DNA from: Escherichia coli
Lineage (GTDB): Bacteria; Pseudomonadota; Gammaproteobacteria; Enterobacterales; Enterobacteriaceae
Assembly: GCF_003334385.1 (NCBI RefSeq)
Contig: NZ_QOWN01000173.1
Reading direction: 5' to 3' (one strand)
DNA length: 509 nt
Below, piece by piece: positions 1-509 of this stretch. Under the pieces are notes generated by a model that worked only from the letters and a program-made list of their open reading frames with translations, ran no database searches and had not been told where the DNA came from. The first letter of the stretch is position 1. Each line of letters opens with the position of its first letter. The position numbers and the translations under genes are program-made.

Positions 1-28
1 GGCTCTTCCGCAACCTGGGTGGAGATTT
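1..28. repeat. Putative right terminal inverted repeat (IRR) of the ISL3-family element; exact inner boundary undetermined
   Basis: Seen in sequence: 1..28 is GGCTCTTCCGCAACCTGGGTGGAGATTT, immediately downstream of the transposase stop on the minus strand. Established knowledge, from memory and not database-checked: several ISL3 members such as IS31831 have IRs starting GGCTCTTCC/G, and family IRs are about 15-40 bp. The left end is not in the window, so the IR length cannot be confirmed by pairing. Confidence 0.45.
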
Positions 29-509
29 TCATGCCAGTGGACTCATTACCCTCTGCCTGAGTAGTTCAAATCCTGCTCGACCATACATCTGGCGTTTCAG
101 CATCTTCAGGCGATTTACATGACCTTCGACAACACCATTACTCCAGCGACTACTGATTGCCTCACATATAGCTGCAGCATCAGCTTCCATCCCCGCCGCC
201 ACGCGCCGAAATTCTGCTGAACCGCTTTCGTGGACTCGAGTGAACCAACTGCTTAGCTGTGATTTATTTTGGGTTTTCAGAATACGGTAGAACTCGAGTG
301 CCAGTTGCTGCGCTATTTTCAGCTCAGGTTCTTTTTCACACATCAGACTAATAAATCGGGAAGCATAATTTTCTTCATCCCTGGTTATTCTCCAGGGCAT
401 CAACCAGCGGCTTACCCGGGACACTGAAGGAAGTCTGACGGCAGTAGTAACCGGTGGGTTCCAGCCTTTACGCCATTTGGCAACCGCATCCCTGACGATG
501 GTTTCACTG
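29..509 (-). CDS. ISL3-family transposase, C-terminal part (DDE_Tnp_ISL3-like); 5'-truncated by the window edge, about 159 codons plus stop visible
   Basis: Seen in sequence: the minus-strand frame runs from the window edge (codon 508..506) to a TGA stop at 31..29 with no in-frame stop. The track's start at 424..422 is GTG, and the same frame upstream reads ...SETIVRDAVAKWRKGWNPPVTTAVRLPS before it. Established knowledge: the C-terminal segment WSNGVVEGHVNRLKMLKRQMYGRAGFELLRQRV (about 44..142) fits the conserved ISL3 transposase C-terminal signature, roughly SNGxxEGxNNxIKxxKRxxYG, which holds the catalytic Glu of the DDE triad (here E in VEG, codon 127..125). ISL3 transposases are about 400-450 aa, so most of the N-terminus lies beyond position 509. 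Confidence 0.85.
   Translation of the reverse strand, partial: SETIVRDAVAKWRKGWNPPVTTAVRLPSVSRVSRWLMPWRITRDEENYASRFISLMCEKEPELKIAQQLALEFYRILKTQNKSQLSSWFTRVHESGSAEFRRVAAGMEADAAAICEAISSRWSNGVVEGHVNRLKMLKRQMYGRAGFELLRQRVMSPLA

Follow-up and report, generated by a model that had tools for sequence, protein, structure and literature searches.

The 131-residue reading frame of a 509-nt Escherichia coli sequence is the cut end of an ISEc38 transposase gene

The window, i.e. the whole 509-nt stretch of E. coli DNA analysed here, starts with a terminal inverted repeat and is then occupied, up to its other edge, by coding sequence read on the minus strand. Its features are collected in Table 1. The ORF listing features a minus-strand ORF at 29..424, 131 aa long, with a GTG start, which is indeed the codon found at 424..422, as stated in the initial annotation. 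When positions 29-508 are translated on the minus strand, 160 codons are read, with the sole stop at the very end: the frame, described earlier as free of stops from 508 down to 422, is in fact open all the way to the TGA at 31..29, and the 28 extra residues upstream of the GTG are identical to those quoted at the time. The translation opens with SETIVRDAVAKWRKGWNPPVTTAVRLPS-VSRVSRW..., S381 being encoded at 506-508, while base 509 is the final base of codon 380. By our own arithmetic, 28 stop-free codons have a chance probability of (61/64)^28, about 0.26, which is unremarkable alone, so that the case for upstream coding rests on homology: the residues upstream of GTG424 align with conserved positions in homologues. 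For the entire 160-codon open frame, the chance is about 5e-4.

The window can be assigned, with a probability of about 0.96, to the stop-codon end of the insertion sequence ISEc38, of the ISL3 family, in E. coli. The comparison was made by proxy, using copies so named in RefSeq rather than the ISfinder reference sequence: nucleotide identity to such copies, located on E. coli plasmids and chromosomes, is 100% across the 509 nt. Matches to the window total 3,199 records, including 431 E. coli records at 99% identity or above; 167 records of the plasmid collection reach the same level of identity. In the two copies from the E. coli M8 plasmid and chromosome (L001, L002), the CDS at 3029..4648 is annotated as 'ISL3-like element ISEc38 family transposase' (WP_075262665.1), and its stop codon (L001 3029) corresponds to window positions 29-31. 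Inverted repeat, stop position and reading frame are all shared by ISEc38 and the window, with zero differences inside the latter. ISEc38 is an already known, ordinary element, which the window edge cuts through.

Table 1. Features of the window, with window positions, and 5-bp direct repeats found outside the arms in individual copies.
Feature	Position or copy	Strand	Basis
ISL3-type terminal inverted repeat of the ISEc38 core (GGCTCTTCCGCAACCTGGGTGGAG)	1..24	.	pairs with the other core end
TGA stop of the transposase CDS	29..31	-	4 nt inside the inverted repeat; matches the RefSeq CDS end
3' 480 nt of the ISEc38 transposase CDS: codons 381-539 and stop	29..508	-	open frame; identity to annotated copies
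Residues 413-534: C-terminal half of DDE_Tnp_ISL3, predicted all-alpha bundle, then Glu-bearing helix	47..412	-	Pfam PF01610, AlphaFold2
Catalytic Glu508, codon GAA, motif SNGVVEGHVNRLKMLKR, third residue of the DDE triad	125..127	-	invariant in 57 homologues
GTG, internal codon Val409	422..424	-	Ala in relatives; without Shine-Dalgarno
Residues 381-398: end of HTH-2 of the IS21-IstA-like module	455..508	-	phmmer, NCBIfam, Foldseek
5-bp direct repeat GTAAT outside the arms	L002, E. coli		
5-bp direct repeat GTTGA outside the arms	L010, Salmonella		
5-bp direct repeat GTTTC outside the arms	L016, metagenome		
5-bp direct repeat GGTGC outside the arms	L042, Serratia		
5-bp direct repeat CTTGC outside the arms	L052, Roseomonas (35% identical transposase)		

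Translation of an annotated copy shows a full CDS of 1,620 nt, encoding 539 aa with zero internal stops. Since the window peptide begins at residue 381 of this protein, the ATG is located 1,139 nt past position 509, in an ORF of 1.62 kb: the start was correctly placed outside the window by the initial annotation, which had expected, however, a full ORF of only 1.2-1.35 kb. Any residue r of the protein corresponds to window positions 32+3(539-r) to 34+3(539-r), on the minus strand.

The product had been taken for an ISL3-family DDE transposase, and this is borne out by the PF01610 search: the window fragment alone matches the model with an E value of 7e-15, at positions 116-240 of 240. In the full protein, Pfam finds the zinc ribbon Zn_ribbon_ISL3 (PF14690) at residues 40-84 (E 1.8e-6), outside the window, and DDE_Tnp_ISL3 as two separate pieces, one at residues 160-295 (model positions 1-135, E 1e-19), the other at residues 413-534 (model positions 116-240, E 1.5e-13). 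Several helix-turn-helix matches are also reported, at residues 293-338. The NCBIfam model of ISL3 transposases, NF033550, assigns 376.3 bits to the 539-aa protein, with a cut-off of 180; the window fragment alone scores 114.6 bits, under the cut-off, as expected for a fragment. The fragment had been described as the C-terminal third of the DDE domain: it does hold the C-terminal part only, but this amounts to a half, inclusive of the catalytic Glu.

In an alignment of 57 sequences, homologues of 31-41% identity, the residues D163, D213, E508, G505, G509, K515, K518, C43 and C46 are invariant; both upstream catalytic Asp residues are therefore present in the full translation, as anticipated. 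The complete DDE triad is seen in the intact reference copy, E508 alone falling inside the window, which lacks Asp163, Asp213, the zinc ribbon and the greater part of the DNA-binding module. The AlphaFold2 model, built from the alignment, has a mean pLDDT of 91.3, with predicted helices at 423-520; by Foldseek, it is structurally closest to two DDE transposases, ISCth4 and Hermes, and to the N-terminal region of IstA. From N to C terminus, the window peptide comprises the last helix of an IstA-like double-HTH, a short variable linker and the alpha-helical C-terminal half of the ISL3 domain, which contains Glu508 and the conserved Lys515 and Lys518. From what is known of the family, the ISEc38 transposase would cut and join the element ends by DDE chemistry; a C-terminal fragment of 131 or 159 residues alone could presumably not do so.

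The gene owning the window may belong to a dead copy, sharing the same frame and carrying an upstream stop, a frameshift or a deletion. Ten records with an identical window were inspected: six contain an intact 539-aa CDS (L001, L002, L060, L061, L062, L064), three are pseudogenes, because of an internal stop (L003, L065) or a frameshift (L059), and one (L063, NZ_CP146557.1) features only a 186-aa C-terminal CDS. The four damaged records out of ten are what makes a dead copy conceivable, and a variant about 95% identical, present once in about half of E. coli chromosomes, is likewise a pseudogene, whose frame is interrupted by stops at codons 88 and 460. On the other hand, the majority of the sampled identical copies are intact, the family of 539-aa proteins is abundant (cluster P0036 has 914 member sequences), and the window itself contains no lesion; the lesions of the three pseudogene copies, in turn, all fall outside the window. 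A dead copy is a serious prospect, if less likely than not. In the literature, as far as it was covered, no transposition assay of ISEc38 was found; ISEc38 is mentioned in 28 papers, one of which lists it among detected mobile elements.

The variant about 95% identical (L006 and L007 1501-3222) accounts for about 2,450 E. coli records, matching the window at 90-95%; it occurs as one copy per genome in about half of the complete E. coli chromosomes. The two copies examined are found at the same locus, between a phosphotriesterase-related gene or ggt remnant and zinc-ribbon genes. Klebsiella pneumoniae plasmids carry a 75% identical relative (e.g. NZ_CP023943.1 76263-77880), matched by tblastn in two pieces and mostly unannotated. 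The transposase is matched by 1,090 Klebsiella plasmid records and, among the matches listed, every full-length one is this 75% relative, which looks like a widespread fixed pseudogene.

An internal start at GTG424 was considered, and ruled out: the 20 nt upstream of the GTG (CTGCCGTCAGACTTCCTTCA) contain no purine-rich Shine-Dalgarno, no promoter-like site was found in the window scan, and the upstream sequence is conserved coding sequence. The position of Val409 is occupied by Ala in three relatives of 83-84% identity (L010, L015, L058), where residues 381-396 are conserved and the frame is open, but the GTG codon is not conserved. It is thus extremely improbable that the 131-residue ORF is a genuine separate small gene, such as one for a transposition inhibitor that lacks the N-terminal part and is translated from an internal start: such a gene has the in-frame GTG as its sole support here, next to the 186-aa C-terminal fragment annotated as 'transposase' by RefSeq in NZ_CP146557.1, and is opposed by all of the above, as well as by the lack of both catalytic Asp in the 131 residues.

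The 131-aa ORF call is a window-edge artefact, because, of the 539 residues of the transposase, the minus strand holds just the last 159; to annotate 29..424 as a complete small gene would be an error, as the initial annotation had warned, the sequence being the 3' part of the transposase CDS. Contig ends, or short windows cutting an IS, yield plausible small ORFs, which should not be annotated as genes. The annotation at NZ_CP146557.1 123305..20, where the 186-aa C-terminal fragment spans the record origin, is a mis-annotation of this kind.

Base 1 of the window is the first base of a 1,722-bp core, whose terminal inverted repeats, of the GGCTCTT type, are formed by window positions 1-24 and by the opposite core end (reverse complement GGTTCTTCCGCAACTTGGGTGGAAG, in L001-L003). 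The single match of a terminator-like scan, at 6-24, is the internal dyad of the inverted repeat. We take 1,722 bp to be the length of ISEc38 in ISfinder; contigs of 1,722 bp exist, in line with this core. All the E. coli copies examined have conserved 21-nt arms on both sides of the core, with sequences TGTCACGAACGGTGCAA(T/A)AGT and TGTCAACGACGGATGAAAAGT; in L001 and L002 these arms are located at 2980-3000 and 4723-4743, just outside window base 1. Given this conservation, the idea that the mobile unit ends at window base 1 was rejected.

Similar arms, diverged and sometimes doubled, mostly accompany related cores in about 20 other Enterobacterales species, and arms are also found at 35-40% protein identity (L018, L019, L051, L052). 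Taking ISEc38-family cores from E. coli and relatives together, TGT occurs exactly at -21 in 36 of 54 distinct flanks, and flank conservation falls to background beyond -21.

An 8-bp target duplication, directly flanking the inverted repeats, is typical of the ISL3 family, and is not part of its transposase-based definition. No 8-bp repeat was found adjoining the core in 14 distinct complete elements (0/14). An apparent one, beside GGCTCTT in a Priestia copy (L057), is left as ambiguous, because this copy abuts another IS copy. Direct repeats of 5 bp are seen outside the arms of the five independent elements reported in Table 1. Since 5-bp repeats lie outside the arms, and no 8-bp repeat lies at the core, the moved unit would include the arms: by sequence, its length appears to be 1,764 bp instead of 1,722 bp. 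The association of 21-nt arms with 5-bp duplications suggests that the accepted boundaries of ISEc38 are too short. Terminal repeats beginning with TGT and bound by HTH-1/HTH-2, along with a short (4-8 bp) target duplication, are expected of an IS21-family element; the arms seen here may be acted on by the ISEc38 protein or by a resident IstA.

With respect to the two arm types, the core may point either way: A-core-B' and B-core-A' arrangements are represented by L001-L003, L006 and L007 on one side, by L004 and L005 on the other. In an Enterobacter plasmid copy (L015), the arms at the two ends are both of B type, and one extends over 55 nt. A flip of the core, through recombination in its own inverted repeats, was not supported as an explanation, since the GGC/GGT and CCTGGG/CTTGGG differences travel with the core rather than with the arms; no mechanism fitting the sequence details was found for the two orientations.

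In L001, an IS21-family istA fragment terminates right at the arm. In L009, a full IS100 (2004-3983), with a 5-bp duplication GCTGT, directly adjoins the arm of a chromosomal remnant of the ISEc38 variant. A 47-bp 'mini-IS100', in which the initial 22 nt and the final 25 nt of IS100 are combined, is present inside an IS3-family orfA-like gene in about 515 E. coli genomes; the one copy read, from the chromosome of strain 219 (L008 2001-2047), is flanked by the 5-bp repeat CTGTC. Its origin can be explained by a deletion between AGTG microhomologies. ISL3-style 8-bp insertion into a palindromic target, or into the mini-IS100, was not supported: the terminal 8 nt of the left flank are in no case the same as the initial 8 nt of the right flank, and a simple duplication cannot convert the empty 47-bp site (…AATAGTGGATCACTTTT…) into the filled one.

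The two DDE_Tnp_ISL3 pieces of the transposase are separated by an insertion of about 118 aa, which splits the domain between D213 and E508. The insert lies at residues ~296-398 (L001 3455-3760), mostly outside the window; residues 381-398 are the conserved part of the 28 extra residues, and are followed by a variable linker. When searched by phmmer, residues 302-398 match residues 10-107 of the IS5376 IstA (8q4d/8b4h) with an E value of 1.6e-10; the NCBIfam IS21 model matches at its positions 2-104 (E 1.6e-16), and Foldseek aligns 101 columns to 8b4h_A, with an rmsd of 3.8 Å and a probability of 1.0. The IS100 IstA is 33% identical to the ISEc38 module across 93 residues. Residues ~302-398 are, judging from these matches, homologous to the HTH-1 / linker / HTH-2 module by which IstA recognizes its ends.

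In IstA, HTH-1 (1-39), a minor-groove linker and HTH-2 (55-104) together recognize the terminal repeats of the element, with DNA contacts made by R31, K32, T92 and K95 (PMC10122671). T92 and K95 align with T383 and R386 of ISEc38: both are among the first six residues of the window peptide, so that the extra residues would encode the end of the DNA-recognition helix. The insert is not peculiar to ISEc38. The best 150 cluster representatives are nearly all 520-590 aa long, and feature one continuous alignment across residues ~10-536; the same IS21-model match is found in distant plasmid-borne relatives from Alphaproteobacteria, Actinomycetota, Deinococcus and Priestia. ISL3 transposases of 520-590 aa that share the insert form a large subfamily, found across phyla.

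These observations may be accommodated, tentatively, by a single reading: ISEc38 and the large subfamily of ISL3 elements with transposases of ~530-560 residues would be natural hybrids, combining an ISL3 catalytic core with an IstA double-HTH module, and their true ends would be the 21-nt TGT... repeats outside the inverted repeat, generating a 5-bp, not an 8-bp, duplication. If so, the 1,722-bp boundaries are 21 nt short on each side. We put this reading forward as a possibility, below even odds. Alternatively, the arms may be the shell of a mini-IS100, the unit being moved in trans by the IstA/IstB of a resident IS21-family element, which is favored by the E. coli arms being exactly identical to IS100; the persistence of arms at 35-40% protein identity favors a built-in link instead. 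No literature link of ISL3 ends to IS21 or IS100 was found. Should the 21-nt IS21-like arms of the hybrid reading be the real ends, ISEc38-type elements are wrongly delimited in reference databases, and provide an example of the exchange of an end-recognition module between IS families. The end architecture and the IstA-like insert, which could matter more than the main finding to mobile-element annotators, merit a specialist's look.

When compared with the classical ISL3 family, as described by PF01610 and by the NF033550 consensus, ISEc38 is alike in its zinc ribbon, in the DDE_Tnp_ISL3 domain, in the DDE triad with an E...K motif, and in inverted repeats starting with GG(C/G/T)TCTTC. Its transposase, in contrast, is about 120-135 residues longer than the ISL3 family models, because of the inserted double-HTH module. 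Target duplications differ as well: an 8-bp one is described for the ISL3-type Tn7546 (PMC9782665), representative of classical ISL3 elements, while in ISEc38-type elements, where visible, the duplication is of 5 bp and lies outside the arms. In this respect ISEc38 resembles IS100, of the IS21 family, which itself shows a 5-bp duplication, and whose left and right terminal 21 nt are identical to the arms of the E. coli copies. ISEc38 is nevertheless distinct from IS21 elements: its catalytic domain is ISL3-type, and the module is located centrally in the protein, instead of being N-terminal as in IstA. Accordingly, the full-length IS21 model NF033546 scores only 60.7 bits, against a cut-off of 160, and matches at positions 2-104 alone, i.e. 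at the N-terminal HTH module. Finally, IS21 elements feature an istB AAA+ helper gene downstream, as in the istA-istB pair of the IS100 found in L009, while the annotated copies of ISEc38 consist of a single CDS, with no istB.
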